A stretch of DNA of 64,000 nt, from positions 4,602 to 68,601 of the forward strand of contig CAZFTR010000001.1 in the NCBI GenBank assembly GCA_964522405.1, given 5' to 3'. This stretch comes from an uncultured Gammaproteobacteria bacterium (GTDB taxonomy: Bacteria; Patescibacteriota; Patescibacteriia; Magasanikbacterales; UBA922). How positions within the stretch are numbered: the stretch's first letter is position 1; each line of letters starts with the position of its first letter. Shown here one piece after another: positions 19,330 to 47,199 of this stretch. The translations under genes and the position numbers were made by a program. The notes under the pieces are model-generated. The model was given only the letters and a program-made list of their open reading frames with translations. It did no database searches and had not been told where the DNA came from.

Positions 19330-19441
19330 ATTGTAAATGCTTGTCTCGCCCAAAGGATGGGATCCCGTCCAGTGAAAATTGGCGGGAAAAGGCTTAAAAA
19401 GCCTGAGAGATGACAGCGCTGTTATCCATAGTCTCCATTGT

Positions 19442-19520
19442 CGCCCATTCCACGTTCGCCGACAAGGGACTAAGAACAGGCGGCGCGCGAGCACCAGCCA
19501 GGCGCGTGTTGATTTACCAG
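19442..19520. repeat. GC-rich 79-nt perfect direct repeat, copy 1
   Basis: Sequence cgcccattccacgttcgccgacaagggactaagaacaggcggcgcgcgagcaccagccaggcgcgtgttgatttaccag is identical to 19875-19953. It is about 60% GC in an AT-rich context. Confidence 0.9.
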
Positions 19521-20209
19521 CCACCACCTTTGTTGTCTCTGCGGTTGGCGATGTGACCTGACAACGCCAGAGGCCAGACGATCCAGGCGATGAGAGCCGG
19601 GAAGCTCAGAACTTCCTCCCTCGGCATGGGGTTCCGCCTCGACTTTTCCATGCCCAGGTCTTTGGCGATGTAGATCAGGGCGAAAATGCCCAAGAACAGG
19701 TATCCGGCCAGGATACTGAGAGCAATCAAATCACTGGTGCTCAAAACCTTTCCTCCTTTCGCGGTTTTGCAATGTTGATTATAACAGTAAATAATTTTTT
19801 TTTCTATGGTTGGTTTCCAAATAAAAACCCTCCTTTTTAAGGGGGTAATAATGGTTAAAATAGTTCCCTTTCGCCGCCCATTCCACGTTCGCCGACAAGG
19901 GACTAAGAACAGGCGGCGCGCGAGCACCAGCCAGGCGCGTGTTGATTTACCAGTCTCCTTTTTTTTCTTCTTTTCGTCTCTGATCTCGATCAGGTAGCCG
20001 GCCAACATGAAGGGGCCTGCCATCAGCCCGAAGAGCCAGATCATGACACCGAATTTACTGGTGTCGGTGGGATTTCTTTCTTCTTCGCCCTTGCCGTGGT
20101 CACCGGTGACGTACAAGAGGGCGCCGAAGCTGAGGATGGCGTAGCCCCCGACCAGGCTGAGAATCATCAGGGCAGTGCTCAAAGTTCTCTCCTTGTTGCG
20201 ATTTTGCAA
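19514..20209 (-). CDS. GC-rich tandem pair of paralogous small two-TM membrane protein ORFs (A ~19955-20194, B ~19514-19754), fused in one frame through an A8 tract
   Basis: The halves LSTALMILSLVGGYAILSFGALLYVTG... and LSTSDLIALSILAGYLFLGIFALIYIA... are clearly homologous. Each is preceded by a conserved leader, atcaaYattgcaaaaYcgc, then AAGGAG, then TTG. Half B stops at the TAA inside the 79-nt repeat (cTGGTAAatc). Half A is out of frame by one base within an A8 run (19959-19966) and reads through. Confidence 0.4.
   Translation of the reverse strand: MQNRNKERTLSTALMILSLVGGYAILSFGALLYVTGDHGKGEEERNPTDTSKFGVMIWLFGLMAGPFMLAGYLIEIRDEKKKKKETGKSTRAWLVLARRLFLVPCRRTWNGRRKGTILTIITPLKRRVFIWKPTIEKKIIYCYNQHCKTAKGGKVLSTSDLIALSILAGYLFLGIFALIYIAKDLGMEKSRRNPMPREEVLSFPALIAWIVWPLALSGHIANRRDNKGGGW
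19875..19953. repeat. GC-rich 79-nt perfect direct repeat, copy 2
   Basis: Exact 79/79 match to 19442-19520. It is followed on the minus strand by a terminator-like hairpin, ccccctTAAAAaggaggg plus a T-run (19822-19846). Confidence 0.9.
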
Positions 20210-20325
20210 TATTGATTCTAGCAGGAAATAAAATTATTGTCTACTTTGCTTATAAAGAAAAAAGCCTCACCCTAGAAAAGGCGAGGCATAGTTTTTACTA
20301 TTGTTCACTGTTTATTGATCATTGC

Positions 20326-21297
20326 TTACTGTTCAGGCTCCCAAAGATTAATATATTCAATAGCACTAAGCGCAGCAGTCGCACCTTGCCCAGCAGAAAT
20401 ACTAATTTGTTTAAAAGGAATATTAGTCACGTCTCCGGCAGCGAAAAGTCCAGTACAATTTGTTTTGCAGCGAATATCTACTTCTATTTCTTTTGCTTTG
20501 TTTTTACTGGCACATTCTACAAATCCGGAATTTGGGATCATGCCAATGTGGACCATGACACCATTTATTCCATCAACTTGTTTTTCTTCTTCTGATCCAT
20601 TTTCTTGGTATTTAATACCAGTTACCATTTCATTGCCAAGTATTTCAGAAGTAAAACTATTGTAAATTATTTCTACATTTGATTTTTCTTTTACTTTGTC
20701 TACTAAAATTGTTTCACCTTTTGGAAAGCCTCCTAGATTGGACTCTGGATACTTGGTAACTAGATAAACTTTTTCAGCAATTTCTGCCATCATTAGAGCA
20801 GATTCGAGAGCTGCATTTCCTGCTCCAATAGTTGCTGTTGTTTTTCCTTTGTAGAGTGGTCCGTCACAAACCGTACAAAAAGTCACGCCTTTGTTTTTGT
20901 ATTCATTTTCTCCGGGAATTTTCAGTTCTCTAGGGTGAATGCCACTGGCAACTATCACAGCTTTGGTCTGGTATTCTTTTTTTTCACCGGAAAAATTTTC
21001 TGCGTGAACTACATGGTAGTTTTTTACTTGTTCAATTGATTTTACTTCAAAGCCATTATCAAATTGCACTCCATAGGAAAGAGCATGCTTGTGGAAATTT
21101 TGGGAAAGTTCAATTCCAGAAATAGTTTCAGTTCCAGGCCAGTTCTCTACAACTCCAGACAAAGCAACTTCACCACCAATGTCTTTGCTGACCACCACAA
21201 AATTCAATTTTCTGCGAGCAGCATAAATTGCAGCAGTACAACCTGCAGCTGCAGCTCCGATGATCACTAGATCAAGCATTTTTTCTTGATTTTCCAT
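20326..21297 (-). CDS. trxB: thioredoxin-disulfide reductase
   Basis: FAD-binding motif VIIGAAAAGCTAAIYAARR, redox-active CTVCDG (CxxC), and a second dinucleotide-binding motif. Confidence 0.85.
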   Translation of the reverse strand: MENQEKMLDLVIIGAAAAGCTAAIYAARRKLNFVVVSKDIGGEVALSGVVENWPGTETISGIELSQNFHKHALSYGVQFDNGFEVKSIEQVKNYHVVHAENFSGEKKEYQTKAVIVASGIHPRELKIPGENEYKNKGVTFCTVCDGPLYKGKTTATIGAGNAALESALMMAEIAEKVYLVTKYPESNLGGFPKGETILVDKVKEKSNVEIIYNSFTSEILGNEMVTGIKYQENGSEEEKQVDGINGVMVHIGMIPNSGFVECASKNKAKEIEVDIRCKTNCTGLFAAGDVTNIPFKQISISAGQGATAALSAIEYINLWEPEQ

Positions 21298-21336
21298 ATT
21301 TCATTTATTAATTTAGGTCTATATAAGAGTAACAGT

Positions 21337-22014
21337 CTATTTTCCCTTGGTCAAGCTGTCGATAAGTTGATTTAAGTCTTCAACATTTTCTTTTATAGTT
21401 TTTTCAGTATGAAAAACCGCACTCCCGGGACAAATTGCATCAACACCACTGGTGGAAATGTCTGGAATAGTTTCCAGATTTACTCCACCATCAAGAGAAA
21501 CAAACAGATCAGGATATTTTTCTTTTAGGTTTTTAATTCTTTCAGTGGTTTCCGGAATATACTTTTGCTTTTGAAAGCCCGGGACTACGCCCATGAACAT
21601 AACCGCATCAAGCTCTGAAATAAATTCATCTAAAACATCAATTGAGGTATCAGGATTGAGAACAATTCCAACCTTATGTCCTAGATTTTTTATAGAATTA
21701 ATAGTTTCAGCAATTTCAGTTTTCTCTACAGCTTCATAGTGAAATAAAACCCTTTTAATTTGGTGAACATCAGCCCATTTTGCAGTTTCTTCTACCGGGT
21801 TTGAGGTCATAAGATGAAGTTCAGCATCAATTTTCAGAAGTTCCTTGGTAACTTTCGGATCTCGCCAAGTGGTATTTGGTACAAATTTTCCATCAGCAAT
21901 ATCAATTTGAACCATTTTTATATATTTTTGTACCTCAAGAATCTGCTGGGTAAATTCTTCTTTTGATTGTACAAGTAAAGATGGAATTATCTGCATATCA
22001 CTCTTATTTTTCAA
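21337..22014 (-). CDS. rpe: ribulose-phosphate 3-epimerase
   Basis: Motifs MQIIPSLL, ELHLMTSNP and DGGVN match Rpe. The true start is probably the internal Met at 21996; the annotated start overlaps rpiB. Confidence 0.8.
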   Translation of the reverse strand: MKNKSDMQIIPSLLVQSKEEFTQQILEVQKYIKMVQIDIADGKFVPNTTWRDPKVTKELLKIDAELHLMTSNPVEETAKWADVHQIKRVLFHYEAVEKTEIAETINSIKNLGHKVGIVLNPDTSIDVLDEFISELDAVMFMGVVPGFQKQKYIPETTERIKNLKEKYPDLFVSLDGGVNLETIPDISTSGVDAICPGSAVFHTEKTIKENVEDLNQLIDSLTKGK

Positions 22015-22456
22015 GTTCTGCTACTTTGCCAAGTCTGCGTATATGTCGCTCATCACCACTAAATTCAGTTTCAAGCCATTTTTTGACCATTGCCAGGTGG
22101 TGATCTTCGCTTCCGAGTTTGGCTGCAAGGCAAAGCACATTAGTATTGTCATCTAGAACCATAGTCTCTGCAGCAGATAGATTATATCCAATTCCAGCCC
22201 GCACACCATTTACTTTGTTTGCAGCAATACAGACACCAACTCCATTTTTACAGATTAGAATTCCTCGTCCATTAGTTTCAGCGACTTTTTGAGCTAGCGG
22301 AATTGCATAATCCGGATAATCATCTGTTTCAATGTATTCAAAAGGGCCTAAATCTTCAATTTCAAGTTTGAGTTCGTTTTCAAGATAGCGAATAATCCGT
22401 TTTTTTAGTTGATATCCTCCATGATCTGATCCTATAAATAGCTTTCCTTGGTACAT
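22004..22456 (-). CDS. rpiB: ribose-5-phosphate isomerase B
   Basis: GSDHGGYQLK and ...CKNGVGVCIAANK match RpiB/LacAB. Confidence 0.85.
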   Translation of the reverse strand: MYQGKLFIGSDHGGYQLKKRIIRYLENELKLEIEDLGPFEYIETDDYPDYAIPLAQKVAETNGRGILICKNGVGVCIAANKVNGVRAGIGYNLSAAETMVLDDNTNVLCLAAKLGSEDHHLAMVKKWLETEFSGDERHIRRLGKVAELEK

Positions 22457-22591
22457 AATATATTGTTTATATTTAACTAGAAAAAATACTGTGATTATAT
22501 TGTAGCATAGAGATAGTTTGTGATAAAGGGAGTTTATGATTAGGTGAAATTGTGTTATAGTTTAACCAATATCGACTACATGGGGAGATGT

Positions 22592-22756
22592 ATGGTTTCC
22601 AGGTTGGGAAAGGAGCCGGTGGTGCTGGTCAAGGTTGTCTGGGGCGGGCTCAGCCCGGAGGATATTGCGGTTTACCGTCAAATCGCTAGGGACACAGTGG
22701 AGCGTTCCAAGCAAAATCGCTGCCATGGATGCGGCAGACCAAAGAAGGGGGAATGA
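22592..22756 (+). CDS. GC-rich small ORF (54 aa), possibly the product of a ~260-nt GC-rich transcript; could instead be a non-coding RNA
   Basis: A TG-extended -10 (tgtTATAGT) near 22545-22556, SD GGGGAGA 5 nt before ATG 22592, and an intrinsic terminator at 22795-22822. The protein MVSRLGKEPVVLVKVVWGGLSPEDIAVYRQIARDTVERSKQNRCHGCGRPKKGE has no recognised family. Confidence 0.35.
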   Translation: MVSRLGKEPVVLVKVVWGGLSPEDIAVYRQIARDTVERSKQNRCHGCGRPKKGE

Positions 22757-22794
22757 TGGGGGGCGCCACTCCATCTCGGATTGGCAAACTCGAA

Positions 22795-22822
22795 AAAACA
22801 TGAGAGAATCATGTTTTTTTGA
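22795..22822 (+). terminator. intrinsic terminator
   Basis: aaaaaaCATGAgagaaTCATGttttttt. Confidence 0.65.
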
Positions 22823-22843
22823 TATTAAATTTATCAAAACAAA

Positions 22844-22868
22844 AAAACAGCTTTTGCTGTTTTTCAGT
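22844..22868. terminator. bidirectional intrinsic terminator, likely ending the convergent minus-strand GC-rich gene
   Basis: aaaaaaacAGCttttGCTgttttt. Confidence 0.55.
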
Positions 22869-22959
22869 ACTTCCTAAAAATTCAAAAAAAATACTAAGGA
22901 AGGGGTGGGGCGGAAGGAATCACGGCGGGAGTCGCTGCGATCATCGCCCCGAGGGGGGA

Positions 22960-23631
22960 CTAGGCATCGATGGCCTCGAAGATCTGGGATCTGGGGCGGT
23001 CGGGGAGGGCGCGGGGCATGGCGTCGAGGGTCGTCATGTCCGCGTACCAGGCCTGCATGTAGCCGGTGGGACGGTGTTGGTCAGCGCTCGGCGCCGAGGC
23101 CTGGGCTCGGCTCTGGAGCAGGACGGCATTGAGCCGTTCCGGGTCGTTCTGGAACATCCAGAGCAGGAACTTCATCTGAAGCGCCTCCTCCTGGCTCATC
23201 TGGGGGATCTGGCCCGGACTGACCTTGGAGATCCGCTGACCCATGGTACGGAACAGGCCGTCGGCAGCCCTCAGCGCGGCCAGACGGTGCATCATGTTCT
23301 GGTTGTCCGGTTCCACCACTTGACTGCTCTCTTCGAGCGAAGCCCGCACCTTTTCCGGAATCTCTTCGCCGGCGGTTTCGTTGCCAGTGAAGATCAGGCG
23401 GTAGCGTGTCCGTTGACCCACGGGGATCTCGAGAATCAGTGCCAGCGGCGGGTTTTGGGCGATGGTGTACTCCAGGTAACACTCGATCATGTTTTCCGGA
23501 TCCTTGACTCCGGAGTCAGGGGGCTTGCTGTCTTCGTACGACTTCATGGCATTGTGCCAGTGCCAGAGAGTCAAGAAGAAGCCCAGGATCAGGACTGTGA
23601 TGAGGAGAGTCAGGAGGGTGAGAGAGTCCAT
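22960..23631 (-). CDS. GC-rich hypothetical protein with an N-terminal TM anchor (224 aa)
   Basis: Start MDSLTLLTLLITVLILGFFLTLW is preceded by AAGGAGG. Amino-acid composition is protein-like, whereas the overlapping plus-strand ORFs are G/R/L-rich antisense artefacts. About 58% GC. Confidence 0.55.
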   Translation of the reverse strand: MDSLTLLTLLITVLILGFFLTLWHWHNAMKSYEDSKPPDSGVKDPENMIECYLEYTIAQNPPLALILEIPVGQRTRYRLIFTGNETAGEEIPEKVRASLEESSQVVEPDNQNMMHRLAALRAADGLFRTMGQRISKVSPGQIPQMSQEEALQMKFLLWMFQNDPERLNAVLLQSRAQASAPSADQHRPTGYMQAWYADMTTLDAMPRALPDRPRSQIFEAIDA

Positions 23632-23759
23632 ATCGTGCCTCCTTGAGGCTTCCGGTTCTAGTCTGTTCAGTATTGTTGTCTTTTTTTGATAAAAAGTCAA
23701 GTCTGGAGTTTAGATTGACAAAACAACAATTTTGTCCTAATATGGGTATACAATTATAA

Positions 23760-23935
23760 AAGCGCAATACTCGCTATCAACGAGGATTCTGAGTCTCAGA
23801 AGCGCTGAAAGAAGAAAAACTTATATAAAGTTTAGTAGAATTTTCCGGGTAAGCCCGTAATAGCAGAAATTAAGAGCCACTTTGGAAGTGAGATGGTACC
23901 GCCCGATATTGGGTTCTCATGTGAGTGGTTTTTTA
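23760..23935 (+). promoter_or_regulatory. candidate T-box riboswitch leader of ileS
   Basis: A ~180-nt structured leader contains GAGAUGGUACCGCCCG, which resembles the T-box core (UGGUACCGC, 23895-23903), then a hairpin plus U-run near 23905-23934. ileS is the classic T-box-regulated gene. An Ile codon candidate (ATC, 23776-23778) sits in a loop context. Confidence 0.5.
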
Positions 23936-24083
23936 TTTATTATTAGTAAATTTGTTTAACCGTATTTATTATAAAATTCAACTCAGCTCTACAGAAATAA
24001 TTTGATATTCAGTTTAAATTGATCGCTCAACGTTTCATTTTATAATAAATACGGTTAAATTAACTCAAGCTATTAATTCATGT

Positions 24084-27053
24084 ATGCCTTACGAATCAAA
24101 TAAACATGAACTTGAAATAAAAAAGTTCTGGGACAACAACAAAATTTTTGAAAAATCTATAAATGAGCGTCCGGAAGATCAGCCCTATGTTTTTTATGAT
24201 GGTCCACCATTTGCAACCGGCTTGCCACATTATGGACATATAGTTGCCAGTTTGATGAAAGATGTTGTTCCCAGATATTGGACTATGCAAGGAAAGCGGG
24301 TTGAGCGTCTTTGGGGTTGGGATTGTCATGGTTTGCCGATTGAAAATATTGTTGAAAAAGAAATTGGATCAAAAAGTAAACAAGATATTGAAGAAATGGG
24401 AGTTGAAAAATTCAATGAGTCCTGTCGCTCAAAAGTTTTACATTATATAGATGAATGGAAAAGGACTATTCAAAGACTTGGACGCTGGGTTGATATGGAC
24501 AATGCCTACAAAACCATGGACAAAGATTATATGGAGTCAGTTTGGTGGGTTTTCAAAGAGCTTTGGGACAATGGTTTTGTTTATAAAGGATATAAATCAA
24601 TGCATGTTTGTCCACGTTGTGAGACAACACTTTCTCAGCAAGAAGTAAGTGAAGGTTACAAAGACATAAAAGATCTTTCCGCAACTGTAAAGTTTAAAAT
24701 TACCTCTACAATTTCAGATATTCATCAAGACCTGGGTGTGTGTAATGATCTCTTTGTTCTAGCTTGGACAACTACCCCTTGGACACTTCCTGGAAATGCC
24801 CTTTTGGCAGTTGGTGAGGATATTGAATATACAGTTGTTAAATTTGAAGGCTCTTGTTATGTGGTTGCCAAAGAAAGATTAATTGAAGTTTTTGATGAAA
24901 GAGAATTTGAAGTTGTTCAGCAATTAAAAGGAAAAGACCTGTTAGGTTTGGAATATGAGCCATTGTTTCCATATTATACTGATACAGAAAATGCTTTTAA
25001 GGTTGTGGCAGGAGATTTTGTAAGCACAGAAGAAGGAACAGGCGTGGTGCATATAGCTCCGGCTTTTGGTGAGGATGATTATCAAACAGGAAAAAAAGAA
25101 AAAACCGGCTGGGTCCAGCATGTTTCAATGAATGGAAAATTTAAGCCGGAAGTTGCAGATTTTGCAGGTCAGCAAGTTAAGCCAATAGAAGATCCTCAAA
25201 AAACAGATATAGAAATAATTAAATGGCTTGCTCACAATGAAAAGTTATTTTCAAAGAAAAAATATCTACATAGTTATCCGCATTGTTGGAGATGTGACAC
25301 CCCTCTAATAAATTACGCAACAGATTCCTGGTTCGTAAATGTAGAAAAATTAAAAAAGGACGCGCTTAAACATGCCAAAGAAATAAATTGGTCTCCAGAA
25401 CATATGAAAGAGGGGCGTTTTGGGAAGTGGCTAGAAGGAGCACGAGATTGGTCAATTTCTCGCCAGCGTTTTTGGGCATCAGTAATTCCAATTTGGGAAT
25501 GTGATAAGACAGGTGAATTTCATGTTATCGGTTCTGTAGAAGAACTTGAGAAATTAACCGGAGAAAAAATAGAAGACCTACATAAGCATACAGTAGATAA
25601 ACTAACTTGGAAAAATCAAAAAACAGGAGGAACTATGAAACGAATTCCAGATGTTCTTGATTGTTGGTTTGAAGCAGGTTCAATGCCTTACGCCCAAGTT
25701 CATTATCCATTTGCCAATCAAGAAAAATTTGAAGCAAGTTTTCCAGCAGAATTTATTGCCGAAGGACAAGATCAAACACGAGCCTGGTTTTATTATCTGC
25801 ATATTATTGCAACAGGTGTAAAACAAAAACATGCATTTAACAATGTGGTGGTAAATGGAATAGTTCTAGCAGAAGACGGAAAGAAGATGAGTAAGAAATT
25901 ACAAAATTATCCAGACCCAATGGTTGTGCTGGAGAAATACGGAGCAGATGCGCTTAGATACTACTTGGTGAGTTCACCGGTGATGCAAGCAGAAACTTTG
26001 AATTTTTCAGAAGAAGGTGTTCGAGAAGTTTTTAATAAGGTTGTCAATACACTTTGGAATGTAGGTAGTTTTTATGAGATGTTTGCAGATGAAAATTCAA
26101 AGTTCGATTTAGAATTGGCAAAGAATTCAAAAAATGTTTTGGATAAATGGATACTTGCCAAACTACATAGATTGCTTGAAGAAGTTACAAAAGAAATGAA
26201 TGAATACAGACTTAATGATGCATCTCGCCCAATTTTAGATTTTATATTAGATCTTTCACAGTGGTATGTGCGCAGATCAAGAGATAGATTTAAAGGTGAT
26301 GATGAAGAAGATAAAAAAGCAGCACTTGCTACGCTCCATGAAGTTCTTTTAACTCTTTCAAAAATCATGGCACCGTTTACTCCGTTTATTGCAGAGAAGA
26401 TTTATAAAGAAGTTGGTGGTGAGAAAGAATCTGTTCATTTGGATATGTGGCCAGAGGTGGATCAAAATATTTTGCTAGCAAACACGAATCTCTTAGTGGA
26501 TATGGAATCAGTCAGAGAAGTAGTTAAGCTTGGAAATTCTCTTAGAAAAGAAAACTCATTGAAAGTTAGACAGCCGCTTGCAAGTTTAAAAGCAGTTGCT
26601 ACTCTCTCAGGAGATAAAGATTATCTTGAGCAATATCAAAAAATTATTTCAGAAGAATTAAATATTAAGAAAGTTGAGTTAAGAAATTTACCTGGAAATA
26701 AAGAAATGGAAGAGATGAGAAGTTTGGCAAATGATAAAATTAAAGTTGCCGAAGATCAAAGATCTATCGTAGTCCTTAACACAGAAATAACCCCACAACT
26801 CGCCAAAGAAGGACTTCTCCGCGAAACAATCCGCGCCATAAATCAAATCAGAAAACAACAAGGCTTGATAATGCATGACCAAGTTCTTGTAGAATTTTCA
26901 ACAGAAGATAAAGTATTAAATGAAATCTTTACAAAAGCAGAATTTGCAGAAGAATTAAAAAAACAAACACTCACAAGTGAAATCAAATCAGGTGGAACTG
27001 AAGAAATAGAAATAGATAAAAGAAAAATTAAGATAATTGTGAAAAAAGCGTAA
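24084..27053 (+). CDS. ileS: isoleucine--tRNA ligase
   Basis: HIGH motif PHYGHI, KMSKS motif KMSKKL, WSISRQRFWAS and the Zn-binding CPRCE segment. 989 aa. Confidence 0.9.
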   Translation: MPYESNKHELEIKKFWDNNKIFEKSINERPEDQPYVFYDGPPFATGLPHYGHIVASLMKDVVPRYWTMQGKRVERLWGWDCHGLPIENIVEKEIGSKSKQDIEEMGVEKFNESCRSKVLHYIDEWKRTIQRLGRWVDMDNAYKTMDKDYMESVWWVFKELWDNGFVYKGYKSMHVCPRCETTLSQQEVSEGYKDIKDLSATVKFKITSTISDIHQDLGVCNDLFVLAWTTTPWTLPGNALLAVGEDIEYTVVKFEGSCYVVAKERLIEVFDEREFEVVQQLKGKDLLGLEYEPLFPYYTDTENAFKVVAGDFVSTEEGTGVVHIAPAFGEDDYQTGKKEKTGWVQHVSMNGKFKPEVADFAGQQVKPIEDPQKTDIEIIKWLAHNEKLFSKKKYLHSYPHCWRCDTPLINYATDSWFVNVEKLKKDALKHAKEINWSPEHMKEGRFGKWLEGARDWSISRQRFWASVIPIWECDKTGEFHVIGSVEELEKLTGEKIEDLHKHTVDKLTWKNQKTGGTMKRIPDVLDCWFEAGSMPYAQVHYPFANQEKFEASFPAEFIAEGQDQTRAWFYYLHIIATGVKQKHAFNNVVVNGIVLAEDGKKMSKKLQNYPDPMVVLEKYGADALRYYLVSSPVMQAETLNFSEEGVREVFNKVVNTLWNVGSFYEMFADENSKFDLELAKNSKNVLDKWILAKLHRLLEEVTKEMNEYRLNDASRPILDFILDLSQWYVRRSRDRFKGDDEEDKKAALATLHEVLLTLSKIMAPFTPFIAEKIYKEVGGEKESVHLDMWPEVDQNILLANTNLLVDMESVREVVKLGNSLRKENSLKVRQPLASLKAVATLSGDKDYLEQYQKIISEELNIKKVELRNLPGNKEMEEMRSLANDKIKVAEDQRSIVVLNTEITPQLAKEGLLRETIRAINQIRKQQGLIMHDQVLVEFSTEDKVLNEIFTKAEFAEELKKQTLTSEIKSGGTEEIEIDKRKIKIIVKKA

Positions 27054-27149
27054 TAAAAAAGTTTCCCCTCCTTTTTAAGTAGGGGCTATGCCACGTCAGT
27101 CGCGACTGACGTGGTTAGGGGGTGGTTTACTCTACACTTCTAACAAATA

Positions 27150-27176
27150 AAAAACACCCGAATCGGGTGTTTTTTA
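27150..27176 (+). terminator. intrinsic terminator after ileS
   Basis: aaaaaaCACCCGaatCGGGTGtttttt. Confidence 0.8.
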
Positions 27177-27679
27177 AATGGTGGTTTTTATGATCGCGCC
27201 ACACCGGAATTCACAATAGTTTATAAAATCCGGTGTGGCGGCGCGATCAAGTGTCTGTTCACGAGGTTGTTGTCCCTCGTTTACCAGAATCAATCCACCA
27301 CCTCTCCCTTATTTACTACTAACGCTCTTCTGGCGCTTTCGTTTTATTCTCGATAGGGAGCTGTTCTAATCGCGTTGCACGATCAGTCTAACGGGTACAG
27401 CCATGAACGGCTTCACGAACAGGCTGTTCGTATCGATCCAAACTGTTCCTGCATTGCACAGAAAACGACTGGTTTCGCGCTTTTTTGTGTGCGCGTGCTT
27501 CAGTCTCAGAATGATCGGAGTGGGTTCTTGCCGGGGTAGGTGCTACAGTCAATATATCTTGCCTTGGAATGAAGTCGAACCGGGCTTCAATCTTTGGTTT
27601 GATACTCGTGTAGAGCCTTATTCAGTCGTTCGGGTGACTGTCACACGTAGTAGGATCAGATCCTCTACGGTGCTGGTAG

Positions 27680-28141
27680 CTATCGCTTGCCGTACTTTTT
27701 ACGCAGGCTGCGACGCTCGATTTCGCGCTCCAGGAGATCCACCGCTTTTTTGGCTTCCTTGAGCCACCAGTGGCGGATGTCATGGATGTTGCCTTCTTTC
27801 AGGCACTTCCAGAGGAGCCAGAGCCAGTACTGGGTACCGTCTTCTTCGCCGTAGATCAGCGTTTCGAACGGTTCGGGGAGGTTGAAGCCCCCGTCCTTGT
27901 GCTCGGTCATCTCGAATCCCTTGTCGCCATTCTCAACTGCTGCGGCGACCAGGTCGACGAGTCTGTCCTCTCTGCGGTAGAGCTGTCTCTCCTCGCGCAT
28001 GACAGCGAGGAAATCAGTCCAGTCCTCCATGTACGCGGGGACGTAACTGAGGAACTGCTCACTCATCTCACCCACCCAGTGCTCGTGCCTATCAGCAACG
28101 AATTCCGTGTAGGAGAGATCCAAAAACTCTCTTCTATCCAT
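27680..28141 (-). CDS. GC-rich hypothetical protein (153 aa)
   Basis: Protein-like, Trp-rich acidic sequence. SD GGAG lies 7 nt before the ATG, and the 5' leader has a GC hairpin CCCCGGC-acggg-GCCGGGG at 28162-28180. About 57% GC. Confidence 0.55.
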   Translation of the reverse strand: MDRREFLDLSYTEFVADRHEHWVGEMSEQFLSYVPAYMEDWTDFLAVMREERQLYRREDRLVDLVAAAVENGDKGFEMTEHKDGGFNLPEPFETLIYGEEDGTQYWLWLLWKCLKEGNIHDIRHWWLKEAKKAVDLLEREIERRSLRKKYGKR

Positions 28142-28569
28142 CTAACACTCCGAAGCTACTGCCCCGGCCCCGTGCCGGGGAGCTCCGAGATCTCTCTCGG
28201 TTATATCTAGCAAATTTTGCAAAATATAATCGAGAGAGATTTTTGAGTTTTAAATGTCAGCTTTCAAATTATACAAACGAATTATATAATTTGGAACTGT
28301 CCCGAGGCTGAAGCTTCGGGTGAGTTTCTGGCGCTGTTGCGACCTGAGTCGCGAGGCGCAGTTGGTCTTGCTCTTAGAGTGTTGGGGGAGCTGATTGACC
28401 CTACCCCTTCTACTGATTTCGAACTTGTCGCACAGCCGGTTTTCTGGCTCTCTACCTACTCAATTGCCAACTCGTGGCATCCACATCTAGATTTCCCCGA
28501 AAGTTCAGAGAAACTCTCGGTCCACAGGAGCGGAGTTAAATCCGCATCTTCATCGATTAGAAATCGATG

Positions 28570-28872
28570 CTACTTGCTTCCCTCCTGGTGTTTCACCAGA
28601 CGTCGATGGACTTTCTCATCGGCGTAGTCCAGCTCGAGTCGGAGCATCGCGTCCTCGAAGGAGCTCAGCGCTTTCTCGACGCTGTCCGGCGTCGTCGTCT
28701 CGGTGGTGGTGATCGACTGGGAGATCGGATCGGCCCATGCATGGAGGATGCGCGTGGCACGTTTTCCGTACTTGTGGCGCGCGCCTTCGGGCATGTTGCG
28801 CATGACAGAGGTCAGTCGGTTCTCGAGCGCCTCGAGACGGACCTGGAAAAGATATTGCTCGCTTTTCTTCAT
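28570..28872 (-). CDS. GC-rich hypothetical protein (~100 aa; start ATG 28872 chosen by analogy to its paralogous leader, alternative GTG at 28893)
   Basis: A leader paralogous to the 153-aa gene: hairpin CCCTGGt-aaagg-GCCAGGG, then gcagtRgcttYggag, then 7-9 nt, then ATG. Confidence 0.45.
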   Translation of the reverse strand: MKKSEQYLFQVRLEALENRLTSVMRNMPEGARHKYGKRATRILHAWADPISQSITTTETTTPDSVEKALSSFEDAMLRLELDYADEKVHRRLVKHQEGSK

Positions 28873-29111
28873 CTTTCTTTTCTCCAAAGCCACTGCCCTG
28901 GCCCTTTACCAGGGAGCCCAAGAGATTTCCCTTGGTTAAGCGAAAAAAGCAGATAACCGCTTAAATTAGGCAAAAGCCTAAATTTTCGCTAAATCAAGGG
29001 AAATTTCAGTGAATTGTCAATAACGGCTAACAATTAATTATAGCAGGTTTTGACGGTTTTGTCAATGAGTGGTAAAATTAGATAACGACTTCAAAAATTA
29101 ACTAAAAAATT

Positions 29112-30596: not shown

Positions 30597-30625
30597 GTAG
30601 GGATCGCTTACGCGTTTATTAGGCT

Positions 30626-30670: not shown

Positions 30671-30736
30671 GAACAATGTGTTGGTAAATCATTATTCACT
30701 TGTTAATTATTAATTGTTAGTTGCTAGTTAAGTAGT

Positions 30737-36582: not shown

Positions 36583-36643
36583 ATATGTTTTTATATTTAT
36601 TTCTTCTTTGGTTATAATTTTAGAGTATATTTTATTAAACTAG

Positions 36644-36712
36644 CTTCGCCGTCCTCGCCTCTCTTGTTGATTTGCTTTCAGCATCAACAAGGTGGCTGTG
36701 GATTGTCTCATC
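36644..36712 (+). repeat. copy 2 of the ~70-nt conserved intergenic element
   Basis: gcttcgccgtcctcgcctct-CTTGTTGAT-ttgctttcagc-ATCAACAAG-gtggctgtggattgtctcatc. The stem carries compensatory changes relative to copy 1. Confidence 0.6.
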
Positions 36713-36805
36713 TACTTTAATAAAATATACTCTAAAATTATAACAACTGATTTCAATAAAAAGGGATCTTATTAGAATCATCCCGCCTATATTGTAGTTT
36801 GTAAA

Positions 36806-37540: not shown

Positions 37541-37581
37541 ACCTTAATTATAGTTTGTAGTTTACAGTTGATAGTTTACAG

Positions 37582-38199: not shown

Positions 38200-38434
38200 A
38201 TTTATTTTAAATCAGCTAAATTATGGGAATATTATACCAAGGTTTGCATCTATTGGCAAGTAATTAAAACTAGCTAATTTCCCCTAATATTTGGCTAATT
38301 TAAGCGATTTGGCCTAGGGCTTGCATTTTTTCATTCAAGGTGCTATAATATGCCCACTTTTATATATATCTGGTAATACCAGAGCTTGAGAAATCAGGCT
38401 AATCATGGATTGTTAAATCCATATTAATTTATTT

Positions 38435-39691: not shown

Positions 39692-39817
39692 AAAGGTTAA
39701 GAAATTATTAAAACCACCCTTAAAAAGGGTGGTTTTATATACATTGACAAAAGAGCCATTTTTGGCTATAATTGCATTCATTGTTAGTGAACAATATATA
39801 ATTAAGTATTTATTTTT

Positions 39818-41674: not shown

Positions 41675-41803
41675 AAAATTGATTCTAAATATAAAATCCG
41701 CTGAAATGCGGATTTTATAATATTTGATCGCATATTAATAAAAAATATGCTATAATGCTGGATAGTTTAAAAGTCATTTAAATATATTTTTAATATCTTC
41801 TAT

Positions 41804-42790: not shown

Positions 42791-42819
42791 GTATATTTGA
42801 GGAGTGAAATTGAGTATAT

Positions 42820-44565
42820 ATGGCCTATCCGTCAATTGATGATTTGATGAAAAAAGGAGGTGGTGGTGCAGGTAAGCCTGCTAGTTCTTTGCGTGTTTCT
42901 TCCAAAAAAACTGAAGAGCAGTTTGAAGAGAAAATGGATCAAATCAAAAAGAAAGAATTGGAAACTGAGGCCAAAAGAAGTCGTCAGCTATATGACAATA
43001 AGTATTCCTATATTGATCTTAATAAGTTTCCTGTAAGTCAAGAAGCTTTGAGACAAATACCAAAAGACATTGCAGAAAAATTAAAGCTGGTTTGTTTTTA
43101 TGCTGATACTCATGAAATTAGACTTGGTGCGCTTGACCCGGGCGATGAGGCGGTGCATCAATATATAAAGGAAATTGAAAAGCAAAGATATTTAAATTCA
43201 AAGCTCTATCTAATATCTCAAATTAGCTTTAATCATGTTTTAGATTTGTATAGAACTTTGCCGATTGTAAAACCAATAACCAAAGATGTTACCATTGAAC
43301 AGACTGATTTACAAAAAGTACAAGCTAGTATAAAAGATTTCAGTTCAGTTGAACAAACACTTAAACAAAAAACAACTACTGATATTCTCACTATCATTTT
43401 AGGCGCAGCATTCAAGTTGGGTGCTTCAGATGTTCATGTTGAAACAGAAGAAGAACAAATTGTAGTAAGGTATAGAATTGATGGAATTTTACATGATGTG
43501 GCTGAGCTCGATGTTGAGATCATGAAAAAGCTTATTTCTCGTGTAAAATTACTTTCTTCTCTTAAAATAAATATTAGAAATAAGCCTCAAGACGGGCGTT
43601 TTACAATTAAATTTGATACTGGAGATGTTGATGTTCGTGTTTCTGTTATTCCTACTGTCTATGGAGAGAGTGTAGTTATGCGTCTTCTTATGCAGAACAG
43701 GGAGGGTTTATTACTAGATGATCTTGGCTTTAGAGGTGCTGCTCTTGAGCTTCTGAGGGAAGAAATACAAAGACCAAATGGAATGATTTTAACTACTGGA
43801 CCTACTGGAAGTGGTAAGACTACCACCTTGTATGCCATTATGCAGATGTTAAATAAGCCTGGTGTTAAAATAATCACTTTGGAAGATCCGGTTGAGTATC
43901 GTTTAGAAGGAATAAACCAAAGCCAAATTGATCGATCAAAAGATTATACCTTTGCCAAGGGTTTGCGTTCGTTACTTCGTCAAGATCCTGATATTGTTAT
44001 GGTTGGTGAAATAAGAGATTTGGAAACAGGAGATATTGCTGTTCAGGCTTCACTTACAGGTCATCTGATGCTTTCAACAGTTCATACCAATAGTGCTGCC
44101 GGTGCAATTCCTCGACTTTTGGCCATGGGTATAAAACCTTTTCTGCTTAGTCCGGCTTTAAATGTAGTTATTGGTCAGAGGTTAGTTAGAAAAATTGCCG
44201 AAGGATCAAGAAAGGAAAAACCATTAGAAGAATTTGACCAAGCAACGCAAGATAAAATTTTAAAAATATTAGACAGTTTACCAGAGCAGGAAAAAGCAAA
44301 AATTGCTGACAAGCCTAAAGTTTTTTATGAACCAGTTGCAGAAAATAGTGAAGATGGTATAGGATATAAAGGAAGGATAGGAATTTTTGAAGTATTTAGA
44401 ATGACAGAAGAGCTGGAAAAAATGATAGCAGCAGGACAAATAGCAGAGGCCGAAGTAGCTTCAGTTATTAGAAAAGATGGTATGTTAACTATGGCTCAGG
44501 ATGGATTATTAAAGGCTCTTGATGGTTTAACTAGTGTTGAAGAAGTATTTAGAGTTTCTGATTAA
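42820..44565 (+). CDS. pilB: type II/IV secretion system ATPase (GspE/PilB family)
   Basis: Walker A GPTGSGKTTT, Asp box and His box conserved. 581 aa. Confidence 0.85.
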   Translation: MAYPSIDDLMKKGGGGAGKPASSLRVSSKKTEEQFEEKMDQIKKKELETEAKRSRQLYDNKYSYIDLNKFPVSQEALRQIPKDIAEKLKLVCFYADTHEIRLGALDPGDEAVHQYIKEIEKQRYLNSKLYLISQISFNHVLDLYRTLPIVKPITKDVTIEQTDLQKVQASIKDFSSVEQTLKQKTTTDILTIILGAAFKLGASDVHVETEEEQIVVRYRIDGILHDVAELDVEIMKKLISRVKLLSSLKINIRNKPQDGRFTIKFDTGDVDVRVSVIPTVYGESVVMRLLMQNREGLLLDDLGFRGAALELLREEIQRPNGMILTTGPTGSGKTTTLYAIMQMLNKPGVKIITLEDPVEYRLEGINQSQIDRSKDYTFAKGLRSLLRQDPDIVMVGEIRDLETGDIAVQASLTGHLMLSTVHTNSAAGAIPRLLAMGIKPFLLSPALNVVIGQRLVRKIAEGSRKEKPLEEFDQATQDKILKILDSLPEQEKAKIADKPKVFYEPVAENSEDGIGYKGRIGIFEVFRMTEELEKMIAAGQIAEAEVASVIRKDGMLTMAQDGLLKALDGLTSVEEVFRVSD

Positions 44566-44601
44566 AATTAAATAATTAAATTTCCATAAGAATAGTTAAA
44601 T

Positions 44602-45750
44602 ATGGTTCGAAAAAAGAATCCCAGACAAATTTCATCTAATTATGGTCAACCTGTGCGTTTTTATAAGCTGGTTGCCTTGAGTTTTTTATTTATTACCATT
44701 GTTTTGTTGGGCCTTATTGTTTTTATGTCTGCAAAGCGAGCAAATATAACTATTACTACCAGGCCTGAGCCGGTTGACAGTAATGTTAGTATAAATGTCG
44801 GTGAAAATGCCGTAGCACCGAGCATTGCCGGTACTGTTACTAGCTCTTTGGTAGTGTTGGAAAAGAAATTTGAACCAAAAGGAGTTAGACAAGAGGTTAG
44901 TACTGCGACCGGACATGTAACTTTGATAAATGATCGCTCTGTAGATCAGCCTCTAGTGGCTACTACTCGATTATTAACACCAGAAGGAGTATTATTTAGA
45001 CTTGAAAATCGAGTTTTAATCCCAGCAAAAAGTTCAATCCAGGCAGAAGTTTATGCAGATAAAGAGGGCGAGATAAGTAATATTGAGGCAACTGATTTTA
45101 CAATTCCAGGTTTGAGTAAATCTCTACAAAAATTAGTTTATGCGAAAAGTGATCAGCCAATTTCTGGAGGAGTTCGTTATGTGGGAATTTTGAGTAAAAA
45201 AGATCTTCAGCAGGCAGAGCAAGCTATGCTTGACGATGTCAAAGCATTGGCAAAAACAACTTTGGAAGAAAATAGCCAAGGTCAGAGATTTGTATTTTCA
45301 TTGGTACAAAATACTGTTGAGTCTGATACAGAAATTGGAGTAGAAACTGATGGTTTTAATTTATCTGCAAAAGCAACTGTAGTTGGGGTATATTATGATA
45401 TTGAGGAATTAAAAAAATTAGCTGAAAGTGTCTTAGCAAAACAAGCAGTTGGTTCAAGTGAATTTGTTCAGGTTGGAGAAGGAGAACCAACAGCAATTCT
45501 AGAAGATTATGATTTAGAAGATGAAACTGCAGTTTTGGCAGCCACTTTTAATGGGCTTGTCACTATTGATGCTAACAGCAAAGAGCTGGATAAATTAATG
45601 TTTTATGGAAAAACAGAGGATGAAGTAAGAAGATATGTTTTATCACTTGATCATGTTCATGGTGTAGATGTTAGTTTTCGTCCACTTTGGAATAGTACTG
45701 TTCCTCATGTTGCAGATCATGTAAATGTGGTGGTTAGGCAAGTTGAATAG
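44602..45750 (+). CDS. hypothetical protein with an N-terminal TM anchor; possibly pilus-associated given its position after pilB
   Basis: TM segment LVALSFLFITIVLLGLIVFM. No recognised family. Confidence 0.5.
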   Translation: MVRKKNPRQISSNYGQPVRFYKLVALSFLFITIVLLGLIVFMSAKRANITITTRPEPVDSNVSINVGENAVAPSIAGTVTSSLVVLEKKFEPKGVRQEVSTATGHVTLINDRSVDQPLVATTRLLTPEGVLFRLENRVLIPAKSSIQAEVYADKEGEISNIEATDFTIPGLSKSLQKLVYAKSDQPISGGVRYVGILSKKDLQQAEQAMLDDVKALAKTTLEENSQGQRFVFSLVQNTVESDTEIGVETDGFNLSAKATVVGVYYDIEELKKLAESVLAKQAVGSSEFVQVGEGEPTAILEDYDLEDETAVLAATFNGLVTIDANSKELDKLMFYGKTEDEVRRYVLSLDHVHGVDVSFRPLWNSTVPHVADHVNVVVRQVE

Positions 45751-45797
45751 TTTGATTTGTTTGACAACGATAATTTATCATGATAATTTAAAGATGT

Positions 45798-45851
45798 ATG
45801 AGAAATAGAAGATTTACAACCACTACATTGAATTTTCTTTTTTCGAGGTAG
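45798..45851 (+). CDS. candidate Thr-codon-rich leader peptide 1 (MRNRRFTTTTLNFLFSR)
   Basis: 17-codon mini-ORF with four consecutive Thr codons (ACA ACC ACT ACA). It is followed by a terminator at 45883-45905 (ACCCTCgaaaGAGGGTtttttt). There is no SD, so the call is speculative. Confidence 0.3.
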   Translation: MRNRRFTTTTLNFLFSR

Positions 45852-45909
45852 TGGATTTTTGCTAAATAATCTGATAACCATGACCCTCGAAAGAGGGTTT
45901 TTTATTTTT

Positions 45910-45966
45910 ATGAATTTGTTTATTTTAACAACTACTACAACTACTACTAACTCTCCACCGGTTTGA
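45910..45966 (+). CDS. candidate Thr-codon-rich leader peptide 2 (MNLFILTTTTTTTNSPPV)
   Basis: 18-codon mini-ORF with seven consecutive Thr codons. It is followed by a terminator at 45990-46013 (CACCCCaaaccaGGGGTGtttttt). There is no SD. Confidence 0.3.
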   Translation: MNLFILTTTTTTTNSPPV

Positions 45967-46093
45967 GGTAGTTTTTGTAAAGCAAAAAACACCCCAAACC
46001 AGGGGTGTTTTTTAATGAGTGAGAAAGTTGTAAACAGATTTGAAATTGAGATTTGTTTCTAGCTTTTTGACAAAAAAAGGAGGTGGCTAGATT

Positions 46094-47086
46094 ATGAGAT
46101 TTGGTCTTGAGGCTGAATTTCTGCTCGAAAACATCAAGGTCGATCAAGCGTTGGAGCTTGGGATCCCTGGTGTGACGAGAGAGTTCTTTGACATGATGGT
46201 GGAAGTCGTGACTGGCATCCATCAAACAAGGGGAGAAGCAGTAGAGGAGCTTCGCGATCGTACCATTGCCTTGCAGAGGGGTGGGGCAGTGCTTCATCCA
46301 TTTGCTTCGCATGCCTTTGGTGATCCCTGGGACAGGGTGGGGTTTGAAAGTGTGACCGGAGTAAGCGACTATTACCGTTGGGTGTACTACGTAGCTTGCC
46401 AGAATCCGCTTGAGCTTCACCACGTTGGGATCCACATCAACGCTTCTCAGGCTGGGTTGGTGGGTGACGCACTGATTCATGCCACTAACTGGTTGCGCTG
46501 CTTGAACTTCTTGTTCATTTTGCTCGGTTCCAACTCTCCGCTTCAGCGAGGTTTGCCTTCAGGATGTCTCTCCAGGCGTTCTTACTTCTATCCAAACCGG
46601 TATGACGTACCGCTTTGGTGTGGAGAGGCTAGTTTCAGAGCCTGGGTGCGGCAGGAGGAGGCTCTCGGCAAGATCTATCCTGGAAAAGCGCGTTGCTGGA
46701 TGTCGGTTTGCCCTCGGCTCGAGGGCGATAAGATCGATTCTGAGCTCGAGAGGATTGAGCTCAGATCGCTCGACAGTGGTGCCAACCTGTCGTGGGAGGT
46801 GCTGGAGGGATGTTGTCAGCTCCTCGAGCGCATTGTGGTCTACTCAGGCCATGGTTCAGAGCTCCCTGTTGACATTGATCAAATCCAGTTCAATGACAAG
46901 GCTGTAGCTCGTCTTGGCCGGCAAGCAACGCTCTTGTTTGAGGGTCGGAGCCGTCAAGCAGAGGAATTGGCCAGGTATTGGTGTCAGGGAATTGAGTCGC
47001 TTGAACAAGTTCTGGACTACGGTTCACAGGCTGAAAAAATCCTGAACCAGATCCAGGATTCTGGGGTCCAAACCCAAAGGAGGTAG
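46094..47086 (+). CDS. GC-rich carboxylate-amine ligase, glutamate-cysteine ligase family 2 (GCS2/YbdK-like)
   Basis: The N-terminal MRFGLEAEFLL block matches the GCS2-family ExE start. 330 aa, about 58% GC against ~35% in the flanks. Strong SD AAGGAGGTG. Confidence 0.5.
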   Translation: MRFGLEAEFLLENIKVDQALELGIPGVTREFFDMMVEVVTGIHQTRGEAVEELRDRTIALQRGGAVLHPFASHAFGDPWDRVGFESVTGVSDYYRWVYYVACQNPLELHHVGIHINASQAGLVGDALIHATNWLRCLNFLFILLGSNSPLQRGLPSGCLSRRSYFYPNRYDVPLWCGEASFRAWVRQEEALGKIYPGKARCWMSVCPRLEGDKIDSELERIELRSLDSGANLSWEVLEGCCQLLERIVVYSGHGSELPVDIDQIQFNDKAVARLGRQATLLFEGRSRQAEELARYWCQGIESLEQVLDYGSQAEKILNQIQDSGVQTQRR

Positions 47087-47199
47087 AGGAGGGGCGGGAG
47101 TGTGAAGGCGCTCCCGGTTCCCAAAATTATTTTATATATTTAAAGTAATTTAGGAATTTAAAAGTTGACAAAATATTTGAGATAATGTAATCTCAATAT

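Follow-up and report, generated by a model that had tools for sequence, protein, structure and literature searches.

GC-rich, Shine-Dalgarno-led islets in an AT-rich Magasanikbacteria-like chromosome are probably horizontally acquired accessory genes

Introduction

A stretch of 64,000 nucleotides from contig CAZFTR010000001.1 (assembly GCA_964522405.1), hereafter called the window, carries four GC-rich islands within AT-rich DNA. We propose that these islands are probably horizontally acquired, self-contained islets, similar in layout to phage morons, which sit in variable intergenic slots and derive at least in part from GC-rich relatives within the candidate phyla radiation (CPR). The evidence comes from the GC content of third codon positions (GC3), the amino-acid make-up of the encoded proteins, the use of a Shine-Dalgarno (SD) sequence, the variable occupancy of the same slots in related genomes and one island gene that recurs in other contigs, each time alone, GC-rich and SD-led. 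Genomic islands and single-gene transfers are reported to be widespread in Patescibacteria, 83% of the inferred transfers taking place between Patescibacteria (PMC12455944). Some Parcubacteria initiate translation without an SD and have lost the anti-SD motif of their 16S rRNA, and the lineages without an anti-SD mostly lack uL1 (PMC9297842).

Results

Four GC-rich islands with foreign composition and their own initiation signal

To define islands objectively, we called them wherever 150-nt windows exceeded the median GC content by more than 0.12 over a length of at least 300 nt. This rule returned exactly four islands in the 64 kb (19326-20250, 22526-23675, 27226-28950 and 46101-47125) and none besides, and these are the same four GC-rich blocks that a preliminary description of the sequence had singled out. 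GC profiles in 500-nt and 100-nt windows placed the four blocks at 0.48-0.72 over a background of ~0.36, and non-island 300-nt windows had a mean GC of 0.360 (sd 0.038, maximum 0.487). Within the limits first given for them, the islands have GC contents of 0.522, 0.552, 0.517 and 0.534 (z = 4.1-5.1). The earlier figure of ~55-60% GC is right for the cores of the open reading frames (ORFs; 55-60% or more) and too high for entire islands (52-55%), because AT-rich promoter/terminator spacers interrupt them (19700-19899, 22800-22899, 28200-28299).

GC peaks in AT-rich genomes are usually due to structured RNA. Run on the whole window, Rfam at gathering score and ARAGORN gave nothing but a tRNA-Arg at 106-178, indicating that the islands are no known RNAs; on the islands, Rfam at E <= 1 returned only a sub-threshold T-box before ileS and noise. 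The blocks had instead been described as protein-coding, and we found seven ORFs with a GC-rich codon pattern (Table 1), island 3 being only ~40% coding. GC3 is 0.57-0.82 in the seven island ORFs compared to 0.19-0.35 in 42 host ORFs (Mann-Whitney p = 1.4e-5), and GC3 > GC1 > GC2 holds for all of them except the island 4 ORF (GC1 0.61 > GC3 0.57). Codon periodicity, with the third position most GC-rich, extends over five of these ORFs; the island 4 gene and the small island 2 ORF show it more weakly. The island proteins are enriched in GARP residues (Gly, Ala, Arg, Pro) and depleted in FYMINK residues (Phe, Tyr, Met, Ile, Asn, Lys; p ~4e-4 each). Codon-usage analysis, proposed earlier as a check, confirmed that the island genes are atypical: the genes of islands 1-3 correlate with host genes at -0.05 to -0.20 and the island 4 gene at +0.30, and correlation among the islands and with a GC-rich relative (contig L081, below) is 0.48-0.87, the island 4 gene being intermediate. 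Such atypical composition is what marks a horizontally acquired islet.

The second contrast lies in translation initiation. An SD core precedes six of the seven island ORFs, four of them with AAGGAG(G), compared to a single one of the 42 host ORFs (Fisher p = 3e-6), which bears out the claim that the islands bring their own SDs. Host start codons lie in A/T-rich leaders. The ribosomal-protein genes rplK (L11) and rplA (L1) and the nusG gene, just outside the window (L087:2471-5632), are also without an SD, and the host thus encodes uL1. Taken together, these results support the conclusion that the islands are foreign to the host in three ways, namely in GC3, in amino-acid make-up and in SD use.

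The island units share a layout of an AT-rich sigma-70-type promoter, a structured 5' leader (in island 3), an SD, a GC-rich ORF and a terminator-like hairpin, in which the promoters and terminators are predictions. Sigma-70-like sites precede all five minus-strand island ORFs (consensus matches), and terminator-like hairpins found by a consensus scan lie 3' of several island ORFs, in line with the earlier claim of own terminators. With a promoter, SD, ORF and terminator-like hairpin to themselves, the units should be expressible independently of the neighbouring operons; on these predicted sites they have the autonomy and the deviant composition of a moron. The cargo is heterogeneous and comprises small membrane proteins, soluble ORFans and a YbdK-like carboxylate-amine ligase. 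Searches of Pfam, PHROGs, NCBIfam and PADLOC gave no significant match for six of the seven proteins, the only one being to GCS2 for the 330-aa protein of island 4.

Islands 1 and 2 are reproduced in independent assemblies

We found DNA with 100% identity to window positions 19924-25030, 20098-22655 and 21963-22863 in Logan assemblies of three Sequence Read Archive runs (SRR8146441, SRR31802803 and SRR31802802). The contigs concerned (L022, L085 and L086) cross five of the eight AT/GC junctions and together span both edges of island 2, the right edge of island 1 and internal AT/GC steps; the re-covered junctions are those of islands 1 and 2, islands 3 and 4 not being re-covered. The possibility raised earlier, that the islands are chimeric or contaminant sequence, is thus countered by identical junctions of islands 1 and 2 in three assemblies. 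One of the contigs terminates within a 79-nt repeat of island 1 (described below), which is the expected behaviour of a genuine repeat, and a fourth run reproduces window positions 53042-64000.

Slots beside ileS are variably occupied in relatives

The neighbouring genes in the window encode, by Pfam, an Xer-like recombinase, ATP-grasp, PfkB, a PMT_2 glycosyltransferase, TrxR, Rpe, RpiB, IleRS, PepA and RuvA. The closest IleRS proteins are those of Patescibacteria metagenome-assembled genomes (MAGs) at 59-60% identity, the top one from Candidatus Magasanikbacteria. As judged from its proteins and start regions, the host is a Magasanikbacteria-like member of the Patescibacteria, and its own genes lack an SD.

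The gene order TrxR-Rpe-RpiB-(slot)-IleRS-(slot)-PepA-RuvA is common to the window, an AT-rich Magasanikbacteria MAG (L001) and a groundwater contig of 57.5% GC (L081). Core proteins are 36-76% identical over the three comparisons, and 48-76% identical between the window and L081. Because the IleRS and PepA genes are adjacent in L081, this contig is without island 3. In L001, the IleRS-PepA slot holds another ORF of 179 aa (GC3 0.69) with an SD-like GGAG and a two-hairpin leader (z = -5.6), and its RpiB-IleRS slot holds mildly GC-elevated ORFs, P223 being absent. The distribution of the islets is therefore patchy, among relatives compared at ~50-60% protein identity.

Among 5.8e9 proteins, P223, the 223-aa protein of island 2, had no match but itself. 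When 1.84e9 representatives were searched exhaustively with HMMER, one true homologue emerged, P0017 (30% identity, E = 7e-11), which aligns colinearly; a second match, P0018, was rejected as a spurious repeat protein. P0017 occupies the RpiB-IleRS slot of L081, as P223 does in the window, and the 90% cluster of P0017/P0019 includes KKW42753.1 from Candidatus Magasanikbacteria GW2011_GWA2_56_11 (56% GC). The donor lead for P223 is thus a protein of only 30% identity in a GC-rich Magasanikbacterium.

Across the other IleRS-anchored CPR loci, islands are rare. SD-led ORFs in SD-poor loci tend to be the ones with excess GC3, as in L008, L014 and the second gene of L023 (below). In L008, from a genome of 25% GC, a GC-elevated, SD-led ORF for a Cys-rich protein of 134 aa directly follows ileS (12832-13236, plus strand), and an Uhrbacteria MAG has a GC-elevated, SD-led ORF of 452 aa (L014:238-1596, plus strand). 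A GC-elevated gene for a HIT-motif protein lies between folA and a cytidylyltransferase gene in L021 (2229-2846, minus strand). A tblastn search with the island proteins against 763 kb of fetched loci gave no further homologues.

A YbdK-like ligase recurs as a GC-rich, SD-led singleton

The 330-aa protein of island 4 passes the Pfam GCS2 model (PF04107) with 25.4 bits over a cutoff of 21 bits (E = 1.1e-5) and is far below the cutoffs of all NCBIfam equivalogs. An AlphaFold2 model built from a 13-sequence alignment has a pLDDT of 93.6 and a pTM of 0.92, and the best folds found by Foldseek are 1TT4 and 1R8G (YbdK; E = 1e-13 to 5e-12, TM 0.69-0.74, ~15% identity). The alignment has 59 invariant columns, and N-terminal Glu residues and His114 are conserved. 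On this predicted fold, island 4 encodes a YbdK-like carboxylate-amine ligase.

We found 13 homologues of this protein at 45-53% identity, bringing the family to 14 sequences so far; their divergence is star-like and similar to that of host core proteins. In all seven contexts that we compared (L023, L024, L025, L082, L083, L084 and the window), the ligase gene is GC3-elevated and has a strong SD, and its neighbours are without one. GC3 of the gene is 0.48-0.74 over these contexts, with an excess over the host level of +0.03 to +0.30, and the flanking genes differ in at least six of the seven. The graded excess, together with the intermediate codon usage of the window copy, fits differing ages of amelioration. 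The preliminary description had held that the same genes at similar GC in related CPR genomes would mean no foreign signal. Taken literally, such genes exist (the ligase in its seven contexts and the P223 homologue in a CPR genome that is GC-rich throughout), but the foreign signal remains.

In two loci from very divergent hosts (L024:8864-10987 and L082:244-2397), the ligase gene directly follows one for an M20-family peptidase, the M20 proteins being 44% and the ligases 47% identical; no M20 partner is present in the window or the other loci. The adjacency may reflect a functional pairing of peptide ligase and peptidase or a shared ancient insertion. A CPR MAG (GCA_964344485.1; L023) has two GC-rich, SD-led singletons 1.4 kb apart with a host-like gene between them, a phosphoribosyltransferase gene (8127-8633, minus strand, GC3 0.80) and the YbdK-like ligase gene (10001-10969, plus strand, GC3 0.70). 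This clustering mirrors that of the islets in the window.

Internal structure of islands 1 to 3

The two tandem cassettes of island 1 are colinear, each with a promoter-like site, an SD, a TTG start, an ORF of ~76-78 aa, a 79-nt element and a hairpin. Their promoter/leader regions are ~80% identical and the ORFs ~50% identical in nucleotides and 33% in amino acids (E = 7e-10), followed by the 79 nt at 100%, which is part of an extended 102-nt repeat at 90% identity. Full identity of the element beside ORFs of ~50% identity points to recent gene conversion or to a strongly constrained element. We rejected a structured RNA at this repeat (fold z = -1.1 vs shuffles, either strand). In both copies the frame through the element is open into the next downstream gene (TM2 and the PMT_2 glycosyltransferase gene, respectively).

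In TM1, the frame of a conserved TGG-TAA (19947-19952) is lost through an 8-base homopolymer (T8, 19959-19966). The TM1 frame of the assembly stays open across the terminator/promoter spacer and joins TM2 in frame, forming a 231-aa ORF (19514-20209, minus strand), and the length of the T8 run is identical in Logan contig L022. The gene could be a pseudogene with a frameshift, be read by transcriptional slippage or yield a fused product. TM2 has no Pfam, PHROG, NCBIfam or PADLOC match. A motif shared by islands 1 and 3 had been placed at island boundaries. The exact 14-mer CCCTCCTTTTTAAG indeed has two copies in the window, at 19828 and 27066, both within weak terminator-like hairpins, but the copy at 19828, whose hairpin has its T-run on the minus strand, lies between the island 1 cassettes and marks no island edge.

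In island 2, the small ORF and P223 converge on two terminator-like hairpins that lie between them, the one downstream of the small ORF at 22790-22822. The small ORF has two weak PHROG matches only (E 0.005-0.008), and P223 has an N-terminal hydrophobic segment that looks transmembrane by eye. The P223 unit is flanked by an 11-nt direct repeat, TTTTTTTGATA (22814-22824 and 23681-23691), and by a 20-nt inverted repeat of 85% identity (22830-22849 and 23674-23693); both may be chance, because they are AT-rich and of low complexity.

About 900 nt of island 3 (27085-27679 and 28290-28569), or ~45% of it, is non-coding and without codon periodicity. In the tail downstream of the P153 gene, 27066-27084 is a terminator-like hairpin, 27091-27114 a perfect palindrome, 27148-27176 a bidirectional terminator and 27191-27249 a long hairpin; the minimum free energy of the tail lies at z = -10.5, from only 20 shuffles. 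The leaders of P153 and P100 are paralogous (28142-28250 being the P153 counterpart), each with a long hairpin and then a second hairpin that ends in GGGCAGTRGCTTYGGAG and includes the SD. Folding of these leaders exceeds shuffles (z = -8.4 for P153 and -5.2 for P100), their alignment has compensatory C/T-G/A changes in the stems, and the leader motif occurs twice in the window vs 0 expected. The proteins themselves have no similarity, and we rejected P153 and P100 as diverged paralogues.

P153 matched only itself among 5.8e9 proteins and no Pfam, PHROG, NCBIfam or PADLOC family; its single-sequence AlphaFold2 model (pLDDT 42) is unusable. P100 has no family match beyond one weak PADLOC match (E 0.0024). 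The island 3 leader motif has no match in IMG/VR, and 55 matches in Joint Genome Institute (JGI) metagenomes were all dismissed as chance, being inside GC-rich genomes and none with the upstream hairpin. At 29037-29078, two consensus promoters overlap face to face, TTGACA-17-TATAAT on the minus strand for P100 and TTGACG-17-TAAAAT on the plus strand (29050-29078) for pepA. With this arrangement, transcription of the islet and of its host neighbour may interfere.

Table 1. Coordinates of island features in the window (predicted promoters and hairpins included)
Feature	Position	Strand	Description
Island 1	19340-20215	-	Two tandem paralogous cassettes for ~76-78 aa proteins with two predicted transmembrane segments each; GC 0.52
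79-nt 3' element, copy 2	19442-19520	-	Overlaps TM2 stop codon; 100% identical to copy 1
TM2 ORF	19514-19744	-	76 aa; TTG start; SD AAGGAGG within 25 nt upstream; GC3 0.74
Inter-cassette spacer	19778-19843	-	Terminator-like hairpin 19828-19843 containing CCCTCCTTTTTAAG, then TM2 promoter-like TAGAAA-17-TATAAT 19778-19806
79-nt 3' element, copy 1	19875-19953	-	100% identical to copy 2
TM1 ORF	19947-20182	-	TTG start at 20182; SD AAGGAG at 20189-20194
TM1 promoter-like site	20215-20243	-	TAGACA-17-TAGAAT with TG extension
Island 2 small ORF	22592-22756	+	54 aa from ATG 22592 (58 aa from ATG 22580); GC3 0.65
P223	22960-23631	-	223-aa ORF; SD AAGGAGG 23638-23644; promoter-like site 23672-23700; terminator-like hairpin 22842-22865; GC3 0.82
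Island 3 non-coding tail	27060-27679	-	Hairpin-rich, downstream of P153 gene; no codon periodicity (27085-27679)
P153	27680-28141	-	153-aa ORFan; GC3 0.74
P153 leader and promoter-like region	28142-28267	-	Long hairpin; second hairpin ending GGGGCAGTAGCTTCGGAG with SD GGAG 28148-28151
Non-coding GC-elevated spacer	28290-28569	-	Downstream of P100 gene; no codon periodicity; fold z = -2.3
P100	28570-28872	-	100-aa ORFan; GC3 0.77
P100 leader and promoter	28873-29065	-	Two hairpins; perfect TTGACA-17-TATAAT 29037-29065 (12/12 consensus, predicted)
Island 4	46077-47125	+	SD AAGGAGG 46077-46083; 330-aa ORF 46094-47086; short GC-rich 3' hairpin; GC3 0.57

Other features of the window

Upstream of ileS lies a T-box-like leader (23748-23921, plus strand; 40.5 bits, E = 2.6e-6, below the gathering score of 93), and an AT-rich hairpin (arms 23955-23982 and 24032-24059, 93% complementary) stands just before the ileS start at 24084. 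Island 4 is followed by a long leader (47130-47425, plus strand) that looks T-box-like by eye and gave no match with Rfam at E <= 1; the gene after it was read as ThrRS from its sequence alone. A giant ORF of 2995 aa (1414-10401, plus strand) has an N-terminal hydrophobic segment and a host-like GC3 of 0.22. At 106-1217 (minus strand), the tRNA-Arg(TCT) adjoins a tyrosine recombinase of the Xer/phage-integrase family (219-1217; Pfam E = 1e-44), 18 kb from the nearest island; this could mark the edge of an integrative element or simply be XerC/D as a housekeeping recombinase.

Discussion

Our results favour the reading that the four islands reached this chromosome by horizontal transfer. As to the direction, recency and source of the transfer, we infer the following course. 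The island genes would have long evolved in a GC-rich pool (~55-65% GC) whose accessory genes initiate via an SD, and the P223 gene would derive from such a pool within the same CPR clade, that of its GC-rich members, in which the sole homologue of P223 sits in the same RpiB-IleRS slot. The islets would have entered intergenic slots between housekeeping genes of the AT-rich, SD-less chromosome, and after their arrival two of them may have duplicated in tandem, giving TM1/TM2 and the island 3 cassettes with their common leader. The high-GC donor proposed earlier thus holds in substance, given the GC3, codon-usage and SD contrasts; its phage variant is unsupported, and GC-rich CPR relatives, as P223 and P0017 suggest, are a likelier source than a phage or the host of an episymbiont. 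No donor outside the CPR was found. Transfer of this kind agrees with the earlier survey, where other Patescibacteria were the inferred source of most transfers into Patescibacteria (PMC12455944), and horizontal transfer is here an ordinary known process in unusually clean form.

Several observations weigh against this reading. Neither within the islands nor next to them did we find an integrase or transposase, the only tRNA gene and the Xer-like recombinase lying at 106-1217, and we found no attC, terminal inverted repeat (TIR) or convincing target-site duplication (TSD) at the island edges. For no island gene did we find a donor closer than 30% identity, and two ORFans, P223 and P153, had no homologue in the search of 5.8e9 proteins. 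Reuse of the same slot is left unexplained, because homologous (RecA-type) recombination between genomes of 36% and 57% GC is implausible. The promoters and terminators are consensus matches only. The ligase family was seen in a compositionally native setting in none of the seven contexts, and its adjacency to M20, at 44% M20 identity, fits long residence as well as repeated import. Finally, in the GC-rich L081 the slot genes are SD-led and the core genes are not, so the SD may mark a class of accessory genes rather than an SD-using donor.

These last points bear on the view that the islands are long-resident native accessory genes, a GC-rich, SD-led class that is actively maintained, for example for anti-SD-tied translation or mRNA stability. 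The ligase is GC-rich and SD-led in seven of seven lower-GC, SD-poor hosts and never in a native GC-rich setting, its star-like divergence of 45-53% is like that of host core proteins, and L024 and L082 both retain the ligase next to M20 despite only 44% identity of M20. The P223 homologue in the orthologous slot, the SD-led slot genes even in L081 and the pairing of SD with excess GC3 in L008, L014 and L023 point the same way. On the other hand, to keep a GC3 of 0.7-0.8 in a genome at 0.22, selection would have to act strongly and without pause on hundreds of synonymous sites, an implausible demand for small CPR populations; the proteins are GC-shifted in their amino acids as well; the graded GC3 excess (+0.03 to +0.30) resembles amelioration; and slot contents vary between relatives, two of the ORFans being without any. 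We therefore regard long residence as unlikely. A related and slightly less probable proposal is that the YbdK-like family and the slot ORFans form a recurrent GC-rich, SD-led accessory class whose composition and SD are maintained, rather than being relics in decay, and which has a separate translational regime, the ileS slots being reused across Magasanikbacteria regardless of GC. Such a regime might consist of translation only when the anti-SD is accessible, or of unusually stable GC-rich mRNAs.

The remaining explanations fare worse than horizontal acquisition from CPR relatives. That the islands are leftovers of higher-GC CPR phages or plasmids, as morons or cargo, would suit their moron-like architecture (own promoter, SD, terminator and deviant composition), their ORFan status, typical of mobile-element cargo, and the two weak PHROG matches of the small island 2 ORF. 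No phage structural, replication or integrase genes are nearby, no PHROG match is significant, PADLOC gave nothing meaningful, and the ligase family, P223 and P153 have no relatives in IMG/VR, INPHARED phages or PLSDB plasmids, an apparent IMG/VR relative of P153 having been rejected as an 8-residue seed coincidence in a prohead protease; we consider a phage or plasmid origin distinctly improbable, and the phage donor proposed earlier finds no support. The family of selfish cassettes that had also been envisaged is weakly supported by two tandem pairs that share leader or 3' modules: the island 1 units have conserved ends (leader ~80%, 3' 79 nt at 100%) and divergent middles, and in island 3 a common leader precedes unrelated ORFs, with large imperfect palindromes adjoining them. 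These palindromes (28183-28247 and 28922-29007) were rejected as attC sites, since they lie 5' of the ORFs, have GTTRRRY-like words on the inner side and are accompanied by promoters; by eye they lack the outer R''/R' (RYYYAAC...GTTRRRY) of attC. We found no attC 3' of a promoterless ORF and no intI, and the sole tyrosine recombinase is ~18 kb away from islands that occupy four loci. The hallmarks of a transposon or miniature inverted-repeat transposable element (TIR, TSD and multiple copies) are equally absent: a search of all island edges gave only short AT-rich matches, such as the 11-mer flanking P223, and no more copies were found in the window, the 763 kb of fetched loci, IMG/VR or JGI metagenomes. 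Movement of integron- or transposon-type cassettes by site-specific or transpositional recombination is accordingly very improbable.

Equally slight is the chance that the GC blocks are large genes for structured RNAs and their ORFs spurious. The ~900 non-coding nt of island 3 and its leaders, with their strong folds and compensatory changes, would fit that reading; no Rfam family appears even at E <= 1, codon periodicity extends over five of the seven ORFs, and protein homology is evident for P223 (E = 7e-11), TM1/TM2 (E = 7e-10) and the ligase (59 invariant columns, pLDDT 93.6). An RNA gene is thus refuted for the ORFs and may apply only to 27085-27679, 28290-28569 and the leaders. Least credible of all is an assembly chimera or contamination, in which GC-rich reads of another organism were stitched into the AT-rich contig, as the sharp GC steps, the metagenomic origin of the contig and the ORFan cargo might suggest. 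Chimerism is very unlikely for islands 1 and 2, because three different runs reproduce their five junctions at 100% identity. Furthermore, the junctions coincide exactly with promoters and terminators, the islands enclose spacers that are AT-rich like the host, cassettes were duplicated in situ and analogous islets occupy the same slots in relatives.

How do the proposed acquired islets compare to known systems? They resemble the genomic islands of Patescibacteria (PMC12455944) in their deviant GC and codon usage, sporadic presence at syntenic positions and unknown or accessory cargo, and in that the likeliest partners are other Patescibacteria. They differ in size and number, being units of 0.9-1.9 kb with one or two genes, four of them within 28 kb, and in the absence of the integrase or transposase, tRNA and direct repeats that characterize a classical island. 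Whereas islands are usually AT-rich, these are GC-rich in an AT-rich host, and the initiation signal differs too (SD vs none). With phage morons they share a promoter-like site, SD, ORF and terminator-like hairpin of their own, an odd composition and a position precisely between resident transcription units, but they lie between chromosomal housekeeping genes and not between the phage genes of a prophage, and no phage homologues were detected. Short single-ORF units in tandem, imperfect palindromes by the ORFs, ORFan cargo and non-host composition recall integron cassettes and clusters of attC sites lacking integrases (CALIN arrays); unlike these, the islets have no attC architecture, no IntI, their own promoters and four dispersed loci instead of one array. 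The island 4 protein is above the GCS2 threshold and its model superposes on YbdK (TM 0.74) like the YbdK/GCS2 ligases 1R8G and 1TT4, but it has ~15% identity, falls below the NCBIfam equivalogs and belongs to a family, so far of 14 members, that has been met only in CPR-like contigs and there as GC-rich singletons with an SD. As to the host, its genes, including those for ribosomal proteins, lack an SD as in SD-less Parcubacteria (PMC9297842) and Bacteroidota; unlike the anti-SD-less Parcubacteria of that study, it encodes uL1.

Because base composition, amino-acid make-up and initiation signal all differ from the host, imported genes can be recognised here without a known donor, and an SD combined with excess GC3 would serve as a simple detector of recently acquired genes in SD-poor Patescibacteria. 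If the islands are instead a maintained class, two translation regimes would coexist within one reduced genome. Under horizontal acquisition, the same CPR clade could plausibly have supplied the donors through its GC-rich members, and the YbdK-like ligase family becomes a candidate mobile accessory enzyme of CPR bacteria. These findings further suggest that tiny single-gene islets free of mobility genes may accumulate in reusable slots beside essential genes such as ileS.

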